A stretch of 64,000 nucleotides of DNA, taken from the NCBI GenBank assembly GCA_017623255.1, contig JAGAPL010000076.1:3252-67251 (forward strand), read 5' to 3'. The stretch's first letter is position 1; the number at the start of each line of letters is the position of its first letter. This DNA is from Clostridia bacterium. Its GTDB lineage: Bacteria; Bacillota; Clostridia; Oscillospirales; CAG-272. A model generated the notes under the pieces. The model saw nothing but the letters and a program-made list of their open reading frames with translations. It did no database searches and was not told the origin of the DNA. Made by a program: the position numbers and the translations under genes. Below, one piece after another: positions 1,026-7,766 of this stretch.

Positions 1026-2642
1026 TTATAAAAATGTGCGACAATGATAAGAAACATTCAAATCCTTTGATTTTTGTAAAAGGGCAATGCATATCCAGAA
1101 AAACGGAGCGCATATTACTATGCTGATATTGAAAAACGCTTGAATCAAATAGCATAAAGTAACGGCAAAAAATATAAGTGTGAATTCATTTTTTAAAAGC
1201 GTTTTAAATGATTTTAAAGCGACAGAAATCAGAAAGGCAAGGTATAAAATCAAACCAATCAAACCGTTTGTAAAAAATATACTTAAATACTCATTATGCG
1301 GATTATCCAAAACAAGTGATGAGCTGTTGTAGTTGCCGTTTGAGCATTCCATAAAAACCGTTGCATAGCTTCCCAGTCCTGTGCCGAAAACAGGTGATTT
1401 AAGGGCAATTTTAAAGCTCTCAACCCAAATTCCTATACGCCCTGTACCCGAATTCATTGTGATTTTTCCATGTAACAAATCTGCAATTTCTGAAAGTAAA
1501 TTCTTTGTAAAGCCTGAATCAGAGTCTGCAAAGCTGTAATTGTAAATACAAATCAAAATAATTGATACCACAATTATTTCAGCCACCACTACGATATACC
1601 AAAGATTGACCCGTATGATTTTCTCAGGATTTTTCTTCAACTGTATAAAGCCAACTGCCAAAAGTATCAAACCAAGAATAAGTGAAATCCAAAACAGAAA
1701 TGAAAATGAAAGAGAAACGTTTGTCTTTTGTGCTTGTTGGATATATTCCAAATTTATTAACGCACGCAATGAACAAGCAAAAACGATTGAAAACATTAAA
1801 AACAGTGATTTATATAACAGAACGCCTTTTTTAAGTAAAACAGGAAGCAGAATGAAAAACAGCGTTATGTATGCAATATTTCCCGAGTTCACTTCAATCA
1901 AAAATACCGAATAAGTATTTAAGAAAACAGAAAACAGAATCAGTGCCGACAATAATCGGGAAGTATTTAAGAACAAATAAGTGAGATTGATCAGCGGTAA
2001 GGTTATGCAAAATACGCATGAAAGCAAATCAATATTACCAATCGTTGAAGCGAACATATAAATACCGCCAACGCCGCCATCAGGGAATAGCCAAAAAGGA
2101 TTATATCCAAAACTTTGGATAATAGTTATAATTGACATCACACAAACGCTGATTGTCACTAAATATAGATGCACCTTTTTAAAACTACCATATTTGCTAA
2201 TGAGTAAAAATATCAAAACGTATAAAGACAATGTCAAAAAGCCGTCATACCTGCCGTATCCAAATATAAAGGACGACATTCCGCTTGGGTTTTCAATATT
2301 TTTATACGGGGATAGTAAATAGGATATTACCGAAAATAACAGAAAACATAACAGAAAAAACTCCGCCTTGTTTTCACCAATATTCAATGAAATTCTCGGT
2401 TTATACCCATCAAGCAAAAGTCCGCAAAAGGAATATAAAACACTTGCAAAAAATAAAAGTGTAAAAACAAGAAACAAAACATATTTAGTGCGCGTTAAAT
2501 TGGAGTAGTTTATGATAAATAAGGGGAAAACGAAGAACATTGACATTAAATAGATTTGTGATATAAAACTAAAATCTTTTTTCATCAGTTTTTCGTATGA
2601 TTTATTTTCTGAGACAGATCCAATCTTCTTAATAATAAGCAC
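1026..2642 (-). CDS. O-antigen ligase / Wzy-like polytopic membrane protein
   Basis: This 538-aa ORF is very hydrophobic with more than 10 predicted TM segments. The C-terminal third carries NPHNEYLSIFFTNGLIGLILYLAFL, which is typical of the Wzy_C / O-antigen ligase domain. Confidence 0.6.
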   Translation of the reverse strand: MLIIKKIGSVSENKSYEKLMKKDFSFISQIYLMSMFFVFPLFIINYSNLTRTKYVLFLVFTLLFFASVLYSFCGLLLDGYKPRISLNIGENKAEFFLLCFLLFSVISYLLSPYKNIENPSGMSSFIFGYGRYDGFLTLSLYVLIFLLISKYGSFKKVHLYLVTISVCVMSIITIIQSFGYNPFWLFPDGGVGGIYMFASTIGNIDLLSCVFCITLPLINLTYLFLNTSRLLSALILFSVFLNTYSVFLIEVNSGNIAYITLFFILLPVLLKKGVLLYKSLFLMFSIVFACSLRALINLEYIQQAQKTNVSLSFSFLFWISLILGLILLAVGFIQLKKNPEKIIRVNLWYIVVVAEIIVVSIILICIYNYSFADSDSGFTKNLLSEIADLLHGKITMNSGTGRIGIWVESFKIALKSPVFGTGLGSYATVFMECSNGNYNSSSLVLDNPHNEYLSIFFTNGLIGLILYLAFLISVALKSFKTLLKNEFTLIFFAVTLCYLIQAFFNISIVICAPFFWICIALLQKSKDLNVSYHCRTFL

Positions 2643-2903
2643 CTCCCCTAAAAAATATACTTCTTTCCATATTTATTATACTACTGTAAGCTATATGTTT
2701 CAAGCAATCTAAGGCTTTTTTATGATTAATTATATCTTCTTATATCTTTAAACGACAGAAGCTGCAATAAAATATTTTGTGCGTAAACGACCTCGTTACG
2801 CTGACAGTCAACATATTGTGAGGCTACTTTAAATTGCAAACTATATACGCATATTTTTTTAACAAAAACAAACACTAACCATATTAAACTTGGAGGGTGA
2901 AGT

Positions 2904-4202
2904 ATGGAATCTGTTTGGGAGAAGGATGTGCCGAAAGTTTGCTTTGATAAAATGGATGGCAAAAAAAGCACTGATGTACTGATAATCGGCGGAGGAATTG
3001 CGGGGATTTTATGCGCACATAAGCTAAAAAGCACCGGTGTTGCTTGTATGCTTGTGGAGGCTGCAGAAATATGTAACGGTATAACCAAAAACACCACGGC
3101 AAAGATCACTCTTGGTCATGGACTGATTTACGATAAACTGATTAAACGATTTGGGGAAGAAAAAGCTCGTATTTATCTTCAGTCACAGATCAGGGCGGGG
3201 GAAGAATATGCGCAGCTTTGTGAGAATATTGATTGCGATTATGAAAATAAGGATTCCTATGTCTATTCTCTTGATAACCGCAAAAAGATTGAAAAGGAAT
3301 TGGATGCTTTGAATCTTCTGGGCATAAGAGCAGAGTTTTCTGATGCAAGTGAACTACCTATAGAAGTTGCAGGTGCGGTGTGTGTGAGAAATCAAGCGCA
3401 GTTTCATCCTTTAAAATTTCTATATACAATCGCCAAAAATCTGCCCATATATGAACACACGAAGGTTTTGGAGCTTATGCCAAATAAGGCAATCACCAAT
3501 CGTGGTGAGATAACCTATAAAAAGCTCATCATTGCAACTCATTTTCCTATTTTGAATAAACACGGCAGCTATTTTTTGAAGCTATATCAGCATCGTTCTT
3601 ATGTAATTGCTCTGAAAGGTGCAGATAATGTGGCCGGAATGTATGTAGATGAATCGGATATAGGTCTTTCCTTCAGAAGCTATGGTGATTTGTTGCTTCT
3701 TGGTGGCGGTGGTCATAGAACGGGAAAGCAGGGAGGATGCTGGCAAGAGCTGGAAAAATTCGCAAGAGAGCATTACAAAGGCGCACAAATAGCTGAAAAA
3801 TGGGCAACGCAGGATTGTATGACGTTGGATGACGTTCCGTATATAGGACAGTATTCCAAGAGTACTCCCGAGGTTTTCGTTGCAACAGGATTTAACAAAT
3901 GGGGAATGACGAATGCTATGGTTGCGGCAAATATCCTATGTGACCTTATGCAAGGAAAGCCAAATCCTCACTCCGAGGTGTTCTCTCCATCACGAACAAT
4001 CCTTCGGCCGCAGCTTGCAATAAATGCAATAGAATCAACATTGGGACTTATCACTCCCACTGCGCCAAGATGTCCTCACCTTGGCTGCGCCCTAAAATAT
4101 AACCGTGCCGAGCACTCCTGGGATTGCCCCTGCCACGGCTCCCGATTTACAGAAGACGGTGAGCTTATTGACAATCCTGCAACGGATGATAAGCAAATGT
4201 AA
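2904..4202 (+). CDS. FAD-dependent oxidoreductase fused to a C-terminal Rieske [2Fe-2S] domain (B. subtilis YhfW-like)
   Basis: The RBS GGAGGGTG lies upstream. The N-terminus has the dinucleotide fold VLIIGGGIAGILCA, and the C-terminus has the Rieske motif CPHLGC...(17 aa)...CPCHGSRF. Confidence 0.8.
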   Translation: MESVWEKDVPKVCFDKMDGKKSTDVLIIGGGIAGILCAHKLKSTGVACMLVEAAEICNGITKNTTAKITLGHGLIYDKLIKRFGEEKARIYLQSQIRAGEEYAQLCENIDCDYENKDSYVYSLDNRKKIEKELDALNLLGIRAEFSDASELPIEVAGAVCVRNQAQFHPLKFLYTIAKNLPIYEHTKVLELMPNKAITNRGEITYKKLIIATHFPILNKHGSYFLKLYQHRSYVIALKGADNVAGMYVDESDIGLSFRSYGDLLLLGGGGHRTGKQGGCWQELEKFAREHYKGAQIAEKWATQDCMTLDDVPYIGQYSKSTPEVFVATGFNKWGMTNAMVAANILCDLMQGKPNPHSEVFSPSRTILRPQLAINAIESTLGLITPTAPRCPHLGCALKYNRAEHSWDCPCHGSRFTEDGELIDNPATDDKQM

Positions 4203-4815: not shown

Positions 4816-4844
4816 TTGAAAAAAGTGTGAAAATGAGTTACAAT
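4816..4844 (+). promoter_or_regulatory. sigma-A type promoter of the OPT transporter leader
   Basis: TTGAAA (4816-4821), a 17-nt spacer, then TACAAT (4839-4844). Confidence 0.5.
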
Positions 4845-4928
4845 TTACTCTGTTGTGTTACAGTACTAAAACAACTGTAAATGACTGAATACGAATAAAA
4901 TTAAATAAATAACCGACAATAATTATGA

Positions 4929-4970
4929 ACAGTTAGAGAGCTATCCATCCTCTGACTGTTTTTATTTTTA
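4929..4970 (+). terminator. intrinsic-terminator-like hairpin inside the 5' leader, 30 nt before the OPT start codon
   Basis: A 10-bp stem pairs acagttagag (4929-4938) with ctctgactgt (4950-4959, one G-U pair). It is followed by tttttatttttat. Confidence 0.5.
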
Positions 4971-5000: not shown

Positions 5001-6923
5001 ATGGAGAAAAATCAAAAAAAATTCAGCCCGTACATTCCGGCAGAGAAGGTTACTCCTGAAATAACAGTCACTTCCATCGTTATGGGGATTATTCTTTCCG
5101 TGATATTCGGCGCGGCAAATGCATATCTGGGGCTTAGAGTTGGTATGACTGTATCAGCTTCTATCCCCGCGGCAGTTCTTGCAATGGGCGTTATCCGTGT
5201 TATAATGCGCAAAAACTCCGTTCTTGAAAGCAACATAGTTCAAACCATAGGTTCTGCAGGAGAATCTCTTGCGGCAGGCTCTATATTCACTCTTCCCGCG
5301 TTGTTTTTGTGGGCAGCAAGCGGAACAATGGAAAAGCCCGGTCTTGTTGAAATAACATTTATAGCTCTTCTCGGAGGACTTTTGGGAGTGTTTTTTATGG
5401 TCCCTCTCCGCAATGCGTTAATTGTTAAGGAGCATGGTGTTCTTCCTTATCCCGAAGGACAGGCCTGCGCAGAAGTGCTTCTTGCAGGTGAAGAGAAGGG
5501 TGCAAATGCGTCAACAGTATTTGCAGGGATGGGATTGGCAGCTCTGTTCAAGTTTATAATCGACGGGCTCAAAGCTGTTCCCGGTGAGATATCATTTAGA
5601 ATTCATGGCGCAGGCTATAAAGGTGAAATCGGAACGCAGATATATCCTGCCGTTATGAGCGTAGGATATATTTGCGGCCCTCGAATTTCATCGTATATGT
5701 TTGCAGGCGGAGTTCTCAGCTGGCTTGTTATCATTCCACTTATCGTTTTCTTTGGTGAATCAATGGTTCTATATCCGGGCACAGAACCCATAGGCACTAT
5801 CTTTGCTGAAGTTGGCGCAAGCGGCATCTGGAGCAGCTATATTCGTTATATAGGTGCAGGAGCATTGGCGGCAGGCGGTATTATAAGTCTGATAAAAAGC
5901 TTGCCACTTATTATCAAAACCTTTATCGGCGCAATGAAAAGTATGGTAAATGCAGGTAATGCAGGTAATTACAGAACTTCGCGTGATATCAGTATGAAGG
6001 TTGTGCTTATAGCCATTGCAATTCTCACAATTCTTGTATGGCTTGTTCCTGCAATTCCCGTTAGTTTCATAGGTGCTGTGATAGTGGTTATTTTTGGATT
6101 TTTCTTTGCTACAGTATCATCACGAATGGTTGGTATCGTTGGAAGCTCCAATAACCCTGTTTCAGGTATGGCGATTGCAACTCTGCTTATCGCAACCCTT
6201 ATTCTTAAATTCACAGGCTCCACAGGTGCACATGGAATGAGAAGCGCTATTGCAATTGGCTCTATTATTTGCATAGTGGCTGCTATTTCAGGAGATACCT
6301 CTCAGGACCTTAAAACAGGATTTCTTCTTGGTGCAACACCTAAAAAACAACAGATAGCCGAGATAGTAGGCGTGGTCGTGGCGGCATTTGCTATTGGCGG
6401 AACGCTTTATTTGCTTGACTCAGCTTGGGGATTTGGCTCACAGGAGCTTGCCGCGCCGCAGGCAACACTTATGAAGATGATTGTTGAAGGCGTTATGGAA
6501 GGCAATCTTCCTTGGACTTTGGTGTTTATAGGAGTGTTTACCGCTATAGTCGTCGAAATCGTAGGAATTCCCGTGCTGCCTTTTGCTATAGGCATCTATC
6601 TTCCCGTTCATCTTAATGTATGTATTATGATCGGCGGTCTTGTTCGCCTTGCATTTAATAAGATGAAAAAGGATGAGGAGGAAAAGAGAGCTACAGTGAG
6701 TGACGGTATTCTTTTCTGCTCAGGTATGATTGCAGGCGAAGGACTTGTCGGTATTCTTCTGGCGCTTCTTGCAGTATTCGGGGTAGATAAGCTCATTGAT
6801 ATTTCAGGTATTCTTAATTTGCCCGAATCAATTTCAACTGTTCTCAGCCTTGTAGTTTTTGCGCTCATTATCCTTAGCCTTCTTATGTTCTCGGTTTTCA
6901 GAAAGCGTAAAAAGAACGGATGA
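5001..6923 (+). CDS. OPT-family oligopeptide (or metal-chelate) transporter
   Basis: The 640-aa polytopic membrane protein has an N-terminal layout (FSPYIPAEKVTPEITVTSIVMGIILSVIFGAANAYLGLRVGMTVSASIPAAV) and overall size typical of bacterial OPT transporters. Confidence 0.85.
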   Translation: MEKNQKKFSPYIPAEKVTPEITVTSIVMGIILSVIFGAANAYLGLRVGMTVSASIPAAVLAMGVIRVIMRKNSVLESNIVQTIGSAGESLAAGSIFTLPALFLWAASGTMEKPGLVEITFIALLGGLLGVFFMVPLRNALIVKEHGVLPYPEGQACAEVLLAGEEKGANASTVFAGMGLAALFKFIIDGLKAVPGEISFRIHGAGYKGEIGTQIYPAVMSVGYICGPRISSYMFAGGVLSWLVIIPLIVFFGESMVLYPGTEPIGTIFAEVGASGIWSSYIRYIGAGALAAGGIISLIKSLPLIIKTFIGAMKSMVNAGNAGNYRTSRDISMKVVLIAIAILTILVWLVPAIPVSFIGAVIVVIFGFFFATVSSRMVGIVGSSNNPVSGMAIATLLIATLILKFTGSTGAHGMRSAIAIGSIICIVAAISGDTSQDLKTGFLLGATPKKQQIAEIVGVVVAAFAIGGTLYLLDSAWGFGSQELAAPQATLMKMIVEGVMEGNLPWTLVFIGVFTAIVVEIVGIPVLPFAIGIYLPVHLNVCIMIGGLVRLAFNKMKKDEEEKRATVSDGILFCSGMIAGEGLVGILLALLAVFGVDKLIDISGILNLPESISTVLSLVVFALIILSLLMFSVFRKRKKNG

Positions 6924-7270
6924 AGAAAAAAGAAGTTATATCAAAAAACTATTTGGAGAGAATCCCCGTAAGGGCCGAACGGATTCAGTGGGATACAGAT
7001 GAAAATGGAATGGTAACTCTCCATATAGAGAATAAAGGAATAGTGAAAAAACTCACTCAGATACTTTTGTATAAGCCAAAGGTGTCGCATATTCATTTTG
7101 ATGAAACAGGAAGCTTTATTTGGCTCATAATAGACGGTGAAAAAAACATAATATCTATCGGTAATGAAGTTGAAGCGCATTTTGGAGATGAAGCTAATCC
7201 TCTGTATGAGCGCCTTGCAAAGTATTTCCGGGTTCTTGATAGTTACGGATTTGTTGAGTGGAAAAACTAA
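6920..7270 (+). CDS. PqqD-family (RRE-like) protein, translationally coupled to the OPT transporter
   Basis: Its ATG (6920-6922) overlaps the OPT stop TGA (6921-6923). The C-terminal half ETGSFIWLIIDGEKNIISIGNEVEAHFGDEANPLYERLAKYFRVLDSYGFVEW fits the PqqD winged-helix pattern. Confidence 0.6.
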   Translation: MKKKEVISKNYLERIPVRAERIQWDTDENGMVTLHIENKGIVKKLTQILLYKPKVSHIHFDETGSFIWLIIDGEKNIISIGNEVEAHFGDEANPLYERLAKYFRVLDSYGFVEWKN

Positions 7271-7272
7271 AC

Positions 7273-7309
7273 AAAAAAACTTGCTGACTTTTAAGTCAGC
7301 AAGTTTTTT
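7273..7309. terminator. bidirectional intrinsic terminator between the PqqD-like and DtxR-family genes
   Basis: A perfect 10-bp stem pairs cttgctgact (7280-7289) with agtcagcaag (7294-7303). It is flanked by an A-run on one side and a T-run on the other. Confidence 0.8.
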
Positions 7310-7673
7310 ATATTTCAGATAAATAATTCTTCAGTGCTTCAAAAGATGTGTCGCTGATTGCGTGCTCCATTTTGCATGCATCTTCCTCAGCTGTTTTTCT
7401 GTCAACACCTATTTTTATGAGCAATTCTGTTATAACTCGGTGTCGCTCGTTGATTTTGGATGCTATCTCAAGTCCTAATTCAGTCAGGTGAAGGTGACCT
7501 TCCTCGTCAACTGTCACATAACCGCCGTTCTTAAGCAGACCGATGGCGCGGCTGACACTCGGCTTGGAATATCCCATATATTCGCCTACATCAACAGATC
7601 TCACGGCATTCAATTGCTTTGAGAGAACATATATTGTTTCAAGATACATTTCGCCCGATTCCTGCAGGTGCAT
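7308..7673 (-). CDS. DtxR/MntR-family metal-dependent transcriptional repressor (no SH3 domain)
   Basis: MHLQESGEMYLETIYVLS...VRSVDVGEYMGYSKPSVSRAIGLLKNGGYV is a DtxR-type wHTH. I chose the start at 7673 because AGGAGGAT lies 7 nt upstream; the 7715 start in the ORF track has no RBS. Confidence 0.8.
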   Translation of the reverse strand: MHLQESGEMYLETIYVLSKQLNAVRSVDVGEYMGYSKPSVSRAIGLLKNGGYVTVDEEGHLHLTELGLEIASKINERHRVITELLIKIGVDRKTAEEDACKMEHAISDTSFEALKNYLSEI

Positions 7674-7766
7674 ATATGTTATCCTCCTTTTGTAATAGTT
7701 TTTATATTTTAGCATATAATTTTAACTTTTTCAAGAGTAATTTCGCATTATTAGCCAATGATTTGC

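Follow-up and report, generated by a model that had tools for sequence, protein, structure and literature searches.

Conserved pairing of an RRE-fold protein with an OPT-family transporter points to a helper subunit for peptide uptake in gut Clostridia

We analysed a 64,000-nt stretch of DNA from a Clostridia bacterium of the CAG-272 lineage (assembly GCA_017623255.1, contig JAGAPL010000076.1, positions 3,252 to 67,251), which we refer to as the window and whose first letter is position 1. On its forward strand a gene for a transporter of the oligopeptide transporter (OPT) family (5001..6923, 640 aa, of the long type with 630-690 aa) is followed by a gene for a stand-alone protein of 116 aa (6920..7270). 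This small protein belongs to the PqqD superfamily and has the predicted fold of the recognition elements (RREs) of peptides that are made on ribosomes and modified after translation (RiPPs). The conserved pairing of the two genes across gut Clostridia suggests that peptide uptake has a helper subunit that has so far gone undescribed. With moderate confidence we read the small protein as an RRE fold that is used outside RiPP biosynthesis, where it serves an OPT-type oligopeptide importer as a dedicated partner in the cytoplasm. If true, this would be a new job for the RRE fold. RRE domains are a hallmark of RiPPs and a class-independent handle for genome mining, and a large RRE family tied to a transporter would yield systematic matches that have nothing to do with RiPPs. 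Bacterial OPTs are common in gut anaerobes, and we know of no characterised member of the group concerned here (subcluster 4B of the family). A dedicated cytoplasmic partner would call for changes in the expression, assay and modelling of these importers, and the pair bears on peptide harvesting by abundant gut Clostridia.

The small gene starts inside the stop codon of the transporter gene (ATGA, 6920..6923, + strand), an overlap that indicates translational coupling and that a first-pass annotation of the stretch had already described correctly. We compared this arrangement with related loci on contigs from one genome per species. The 80 best loci come from Lachnospiraceae, Oscillospiraceae, Acutalibacteraceae, Christensenellaceae, Ruminococcus and others, and in all 80 cases an OPT gene (60-84% OPT identity) lies immediately upstream of the small gene on the same strand. 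When the open reading frames (ORFs) of these loci were clustered, only the OPT gene and the small gene were common to all of them. We also used two evenly drawn samples, one of 300 Clostridia genomes for the class and one of 400 genomes for the phylum. Across the 300 Clostridia genomes the small gene was found behind 71 of 78 long-type OPT genes and at none of the 10 loci with a short-type OPT (540-585 aa); seen from the other side, 71 of 75 small genes of this family had an OPT gene ahead of them. In other classes of the phylum 13 of 18 matches were paired, with OPT identities of 28-56% and small-protein identities down to ~26%. In the OPT tree the paired genes are found on both sides of the deepest split, and the seven unpaired ones branch from within paired clades; this requires at least four changes. 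The partner therefore appears to be an ancestral feature of this OPT clade that was lost now and then. The first-pass annotation had suggested that the small protein acts as an accessory of the transporter for peptide capture or gating, an idea that depended on a match to the PqqD profile and on conserved adjacency. As both were found, neither of these two grounds for abandoning the idea applies.

The spacing between the two genes ranged from -23 to +17 nt in 127 of 143 measured pairs, where the start codons of the small genes were set by profile position and single spacings may err by a few codons. In 36 of the 143 pairs the genes are in frame and only one stop codon apart. The genes are thus co-operonic, coupled and co-inherited, as the model of a transporter with a cytoplasmic partner calls for. 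No fused OPT-RRE protein or other fused form was found among proteins of 204-2000 aa and 414-1318 aa. An apparent fusion in one related locus (L041) was rejected as an over-extended tblastn match, since the TAG stop codon is present. The sole long carrier of the domain, protein P0179 (ENA, 477 aa), shows RRE-like residues 4-117 followed by a cadherin-like β-sandwich; it forms a cluster of its own, comes from a contig of 6.4 kb and could be an artefact of gene calling.

The small protein has 1227 related protein clusters of 114-126 aa which match over the full length and carry the same precomputed domain, and we therefore regard the small gene as real. Where the source annotates these relatives at all, it does so only as 'PqqD family protein'. 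A profile search of 1.84 billion representatives returned 571 clusters at E ≤ 1e-10. Against the Pfam PqqD model (PF05402) the small protein scored 31.7 bits (cut-off 23.4) over residues 53-112, which agrees with the earlier assignment of its C-terminal part to this family. It does not qualify as PqqD proper, the chaperone of pyrroloquinoline quinone (PQQ): the NCBIfam equivalogs TIGR03859 and NF002535 were missed (17.5 bits versus 46 and 17.6 versus 101, respectively) and there are no pqq genes nearby. The score for the NCBIfam ScmD equivalog was also far under its cut-off.

We modelled the small protein with AlphaFold on an alignment of 20 relatives and obtained a winged-helix fold with a three-stranded sheet and three helices (mean predicted local distance difference test, pLDDT, 87.7). 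VIA-align placed all 84 residues of the lasso-peptide RRE TbiB1 (5v1u) on model residues 16-115 (Z 11.1, root-mean-square deviation 2.5 Å). The next matches were a lasso B1 protein (Z 9.9), cyanobactin and lanthipeptide RRE domains and PqqD (5SXY, Z 8.7). With Foldseek, leader-bound lasso-peptide RREs ranked at the top, and TbiB1 reached a target-normalised template-modelling (TM) score of 0.81. As TbiB1 aligns as a whole to residues 16-115, residues ~14-40 of the small protein correspond to strands β1 and β2. According to the model the full RRE is formed by residues ~14-116, and the only additions to the fold are the first ~13 residues and the basic helix of residues 41-54. This corrects the first-pass annotation, which had regarded the N-terminal ~45 aa as an extra segment.

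Both additions have features that set the family apart. Residues 10-16 (6947..6967, + strand) form a family-specific motif, N-[YF]-L-x-x-[IV]-P, which lies outside the Pfam PqqD model and is retained in distant members and in those that are not linked to an OPT gene. In alignment A1, which holds 20 sequences from several families and has 31 invariant columns, N10, Y11, L12 and P16 of this motif do not vary, and the groove residues S56, H59, D61, R98, L99 and F103 are very conserved. The basic helix (residues 41-54; 7040..7081, + strand) is inserted between RRE strands β2 and β3 and falls in the part that has no counterpart in TbiB1 (84 of 100 residues aligned). Residues 41-50 are helical in the model, with a pLDDT of ~65 when the protein is folded alone. 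Over 134 family members the mean net charge of residues 41-54 was +4.3 (standard deviation 0.9).

We considered the small protein as a classical RiPP RRE. It would then present a precursor peptide to enzymes encoded elsewhere, and the OPT protein would serve as an exporter or immunity protein. All characterised PqqD-like RREs act in RiPP or PQQ pathways (PMC7470986), and the top structural matches of our model are leader-bound RREs. However, we found no radical-SAM enzyme, cyclase, YcaO enzyme, protease or precursor gene conserved in the 80 loci, and there is no RiPP enzyme or precursor gene near the small gene in the window, where the neighbours are unrelated to RiPP biosynthesis. The absence of RiPP enzymes around the pair noted in the first-pass annotation is therefore borne out both for the window and for the related loci. 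Furthermore, the small gene is the sole PqqD-family match in its source genome (assembly of 1.6 Mb, 71% complete), the small protein stays far under the PqqD and ScmD equivalog cut-offs, and the characterised OPT members are importers (PMC3061005). The pairing, the neighbour survey and the exceptional members described below exclude a classical RiPP role for practical purposes, and we consider it very improbable. The two RRE-Finder papers (PMC7470986 among them) report that many discrete RRE matches lie outside RiPP clusters and do not describe an RRE linked to a transporter. In the literature that we searched we found no description of PqqD together with the OPT family or of the pair itself, and the earlier impression that such a role had not been described was thus correct to that extent.

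The 640-aa ORF belongs clearly to the OPT family, with matches to PF03169 (E 1.7e-92, 311.5 bits versus 25.8) and TIGR00733 (E 4e-119, 398.7 bits versus 182.5). Gomolplitinant and Saier (2011; PMC3061005) assigned OPTs of 631-649 aa from gut Firmicutes (Ruminococcus, Eubacterium and Clostridium sp.) to subcluster 4B and predicted peptide uptake for it from gene context; a PqqD-like neighbour is not mentioned there. Our own survey of gene context led to the same prediction of oligopeptide import for the transporter in the window. After the OPT gene and the small gene the commonest neighbours in the 80 loci were a GMP synthase gene (11 loci) and a gene for a PepD-type dipeptidase (8 loci; TIGR01893, 473 bits versus a cut-off of 344). 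The dipeptidase gene is always directly upstream and co-oriented, which gives the order pepD-OPT-RRE in loci L028, L029, L033, L050, L054, L057, L059 and L060 (at about 2270-4008). In one further genome (G012) a PepD-type dipeptidase gene is located behind the OPT gene and replaces the small gene. The cytoplasmic N-terminal tail of the transporter (window 5001-5070) carries a motif, F-[KQ]-P-Y-[IV]-P-A, that is near-invariant in ~70 related loci and loosely resembles the N-[YF]-L-x-x-[IV]-P motif of the partner, with an aromatic residue followed by I/V-P. We considered this tail as a partner-specific docking peptide and rejected it, because unpaired OPTs share the motif.

The identity of the neighbours also bears on the question whether the pair takes up metals. 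A gene for a DtxR/MntR-type metalloregulator (7308..7715, - strand) converges on the small gene. Its product matches PF02742 and PF01325 above the cut-offs of both domains and reaches 84.6 bits for the MntR equivalog (cut-off 153). On this basis a YSL-like OPT could import metal chelates under DtxR/MntR control, with the small protein handling the chelate. Prokaryotic OPTs are indeed on the YSL-side subdivision of the family tree (PMC3061005), and the sole solved structure among the OPT relatives is the plant iron-chelate transporter YS1 of barley (7WSR/7WST), to which the OPT fold matched with E 8.6e-15. However, the DtxR-type gene adjoins the pair in only 1 of the 80 loci, in the closest relative; two others have it at a distance of 3-4 kb. 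This removes the support that it gave to metallophore uptake: the first-pass annotation was right about the convergent gene, whereas its metallophore reading is not supported, as dipeptidases and not metalloregulators recur next to the pair. The gene is outside the conserved module and separated from it by a terminator, and the gene context reported for the OPT subcluster (PMC3061005) indicates peptides as well. Metallophore uptake is in our opinion highly improbable.

The rare members of the small-protein family that are found away from an OPT gene all retain the family hallmark motifs. In genome G348 a full-length small gene (L177:3108-3458, - strand) lies 307 nt downstream of a complete oppB-oppC-oppD-oppF-oppA operon, and the same arrangement is found in G707 (L178); G348 has a long-type OPT elsewhere in the genome. 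In these two genomes the partner protein is linked to a mechanistically different peptide importer of the ATP-binding cassette (ABC) type. One genus carries the small gene behind a gene for a wall-associated protein, with the OPT elsewhere in the genome, and in G126 OPT and small gene are both present and unlinked. In G245 the small gene (L091:2807-3184, - strand) directly follows a pair of TldD/PmbA metallopeptidase genes; the genome is 96% complete, and our search detected no OPT gene in it. There was also no detectable OPT in G194 and G310, both of which have the small protein. Since some members occur away from OPT and three genomes have none, the activity of the small protein is probably linked to peptides rather than solely to the OPT protein.

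From the coupling and pairing of the genes, the modelled fold, the lack of RiPP genes and the neighbours with a link to peptides we infer how the small protein might bind, hold and receive its ligand. RREs bind an extended peptide that is added as an extra β-strand along β3 and α3. This activity, the neighbouring importer and peptidase genes and the absence of a fused form together suggest a free cytoplasmic protein dedicated to peptides, which leads us to favour a role in capturing imported oligopeptides, or handing them on, at the transporter's inner face. The two genes would be transcribed and translated as a coupled unit, so that the partner is produced alongside the permease. The usual RRE groove (strand β3 and helix α3) would most likely hold an extended peptide as an added β-strand, and the favoured ligand is oligopeptide cargo at the cytoplasmic exit of the transporter. 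The partner would capture this cargo and pass it to dipeptidases, for instance. Candidate tethers to the inner face of the membrane or of the transporter are the N-[YF]-L-x-x-[IV]-P head and the strongly basic helix at residues 41-54. A wider hypothesis, which we put forward tentatively, is that OPT-fold permeases in general have an RRE-fold protein as an ancient cytoplasmic subunit, with the Clostridia pair as a minimal two-component importer in which a domain that captures β-strands receives or gates the cargo. Such a subunit would explain many of the 'orphan RRE' matches that are dropped by RiPP genome mining.

Several observations weigh against a dedicated partner that handles imported peptides. 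The three genomes with a small protein and no OPT found imply that OPT is not strictly needed, and the Opp and TldD contexts are single lineages. The pairwise distances of OPT and small protein are correlated (r 0.88), a value that is confounded by shared descent. In related locus L052 the in-frame pair can be read through naturally to a protein of 753 aa, which we folded with a 150-row alignment. This fusion model reached a pLDDT of only 84 and a predicted TM score of 0.76, with a disordered linker (residues 633-646, pLDDT < 50). Finally, the groove is very conserved, and one fixed ligand fits this conservation better than varied cargo peptides.

A fixed ligand is what the main rival explanation assumes. 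Here the small protein is a gating or regulatory subunit whose RRE groove binds a fixed cytoplasmic tail or loop of the OPT protein and opens, closes or stabilises the transporter, comparable to GlnK and AmtB. The tight, near-stoichiometric coupling and the adjacency of ~91% speak for it, and not only the groove but the whole sequence of 116 aa is very conserved, as the 31 invariant columns illustrate. The co-divergence of the two proteins can be cited in its favour, and so can the conserved basic insert helix, for which the pLDDT rose from ~65 to 81-85 in the fusion model. This rise in a confidence value may only reflect the deeper alignment. Members with the hallmark motifs that lack linkage to OPT, lie behind an operon for an Opp ABC importer or occur in the three genomes with no OPT found are difficult to reconcile with a subunit of this kind. 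Moreover, the tail motif is shared by unpaired OPTs and is thus not a partner-specific site, and no natural fusion was found. We regard gating as possible but rather doubtful.

We further considered that the small protein is a winged-helix regulator of the operon that acts by binding DNA or RNA and may sense imported peptides. The RRE fold is related to the winged helix-turn-helix fold, and searches for RREs pick up DNA-binding regulators as their main false positives (PMC7470986). The model aligned weakly to the winged helices of PerR and RPC62 (Z 4-5), and the insert helix is basic. In contrast, residues 55-73, which hold helix α1, and residues 74-93 with helix α2 are acidic with a net charge of ~-2 each, and among family members the isoelectric point of the full-length protein can lie anywhere between 5.6 and 9.7. 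Acidic segments at these helices and a variable isoelectric point argue against DNA binding. The stop-start coupling to the permease would lead to near-equal amounts of both proteins, which is unusual in regulators. In addition, no conserved operator was found upstream of the pair in the related loci. A regulatory role of this type therefore seems very unlikely.

The upstream region contains several local elements. A promoter-like site (TTGAAA-17-TACAAT, 4816..4844, + strand) was found by consensus scan ahead of the two-gene operon; such sites are no more numerous in the region than in shuffles and we treat this one as a candidate. Just after it there is a perfect inverted repeat (TTACAGT-N9-ACTGTAA, 4858-4880), which occurs only once in the window (0 expected by chance) and may be an operator; it is deleted in the closest relative, L002. 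A CodY box with at most 4 mismatches occurred upstream in 54% of cases versus 26% in shuffles, a mild enrichment relative to a weak shuffle control. The 5' leader carries a hairpin of 12 bp with a T-run (4927..4968, + strand), 39 nt ahead of the OPT start. It is kept in L002, is not general among the related loci and could be a local attenuator. A hairpin was present within 160 nt upstream in 19 of 74 loci, mostly at a distance of 80-140 nt. We rejected these hairpins as a general leader terminator, because most of them resemble the terminator of the gene upstream. No Rfam family or known RNA element matched in the window or in 12 related loci. Locus L014 has a T-box leader (6451-6696) ~100 nt downstream of the pair and an adenosylcobalamin (AdoCbl-II) riboswitch (2779-2862) ~1.2 kb upstream of the OPT start, both of which belong to neighbour genes and not to the pair.

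Downstream of the small gene a hairpin with a 16-bp stem flanked by T/A runs (7274..7309, both strands) forms a bidirectional intrinsic terminator, which ends both the small gene and the convergent DtxR-type gene. The remaining neighbours in the window encode a Wzy-like protein, a DAO-Rieske oxidoreductase, a DUF4186 protein, an AzlD remnant, the halves of a chromate transporter and phage packaging proteins.

Parts of the pair can be compared with known systems. The transporter matches the OPTs of subcluster 4B (PMC3061005) in size and in its gut-Firmicutes hosts. The small protein shares its fold, its similar size and its stand-alone form with discrete RREs such as the lasso B1 proteins (e.g. 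TbiB1, PDB 5V1U/5V1V) and PqqD (PDB 5SXY/3G2B). It differs from them in that it has no linked precursor or modifying enzyme and a transporter gene as its partner, and in that it adds the N-terminal motif and the basic helix between β2 and β3. For the proposed association with a transporter the closest parallel is GlnK, which plugs AmtB: the gene of this small cytoplasmic protein shares an operon with that of a secondary transporter, and the protein acts on the transporter's inner face. GlnK has an unrelated PII fold, a known ligand logic and a proven complex, whereas our pair is known from its genes and a predicted fold. In E. coli cstA-ybdD and btsT(yjiY)-yjiX the transporter is of the CstA family and the small protein is a DUF466 protein with no RRE fold, but the arrangement is the same, as the gene for a small soluble protein lies directly behind that of a peptide or pyruvate transporter and the pairing is widespread.

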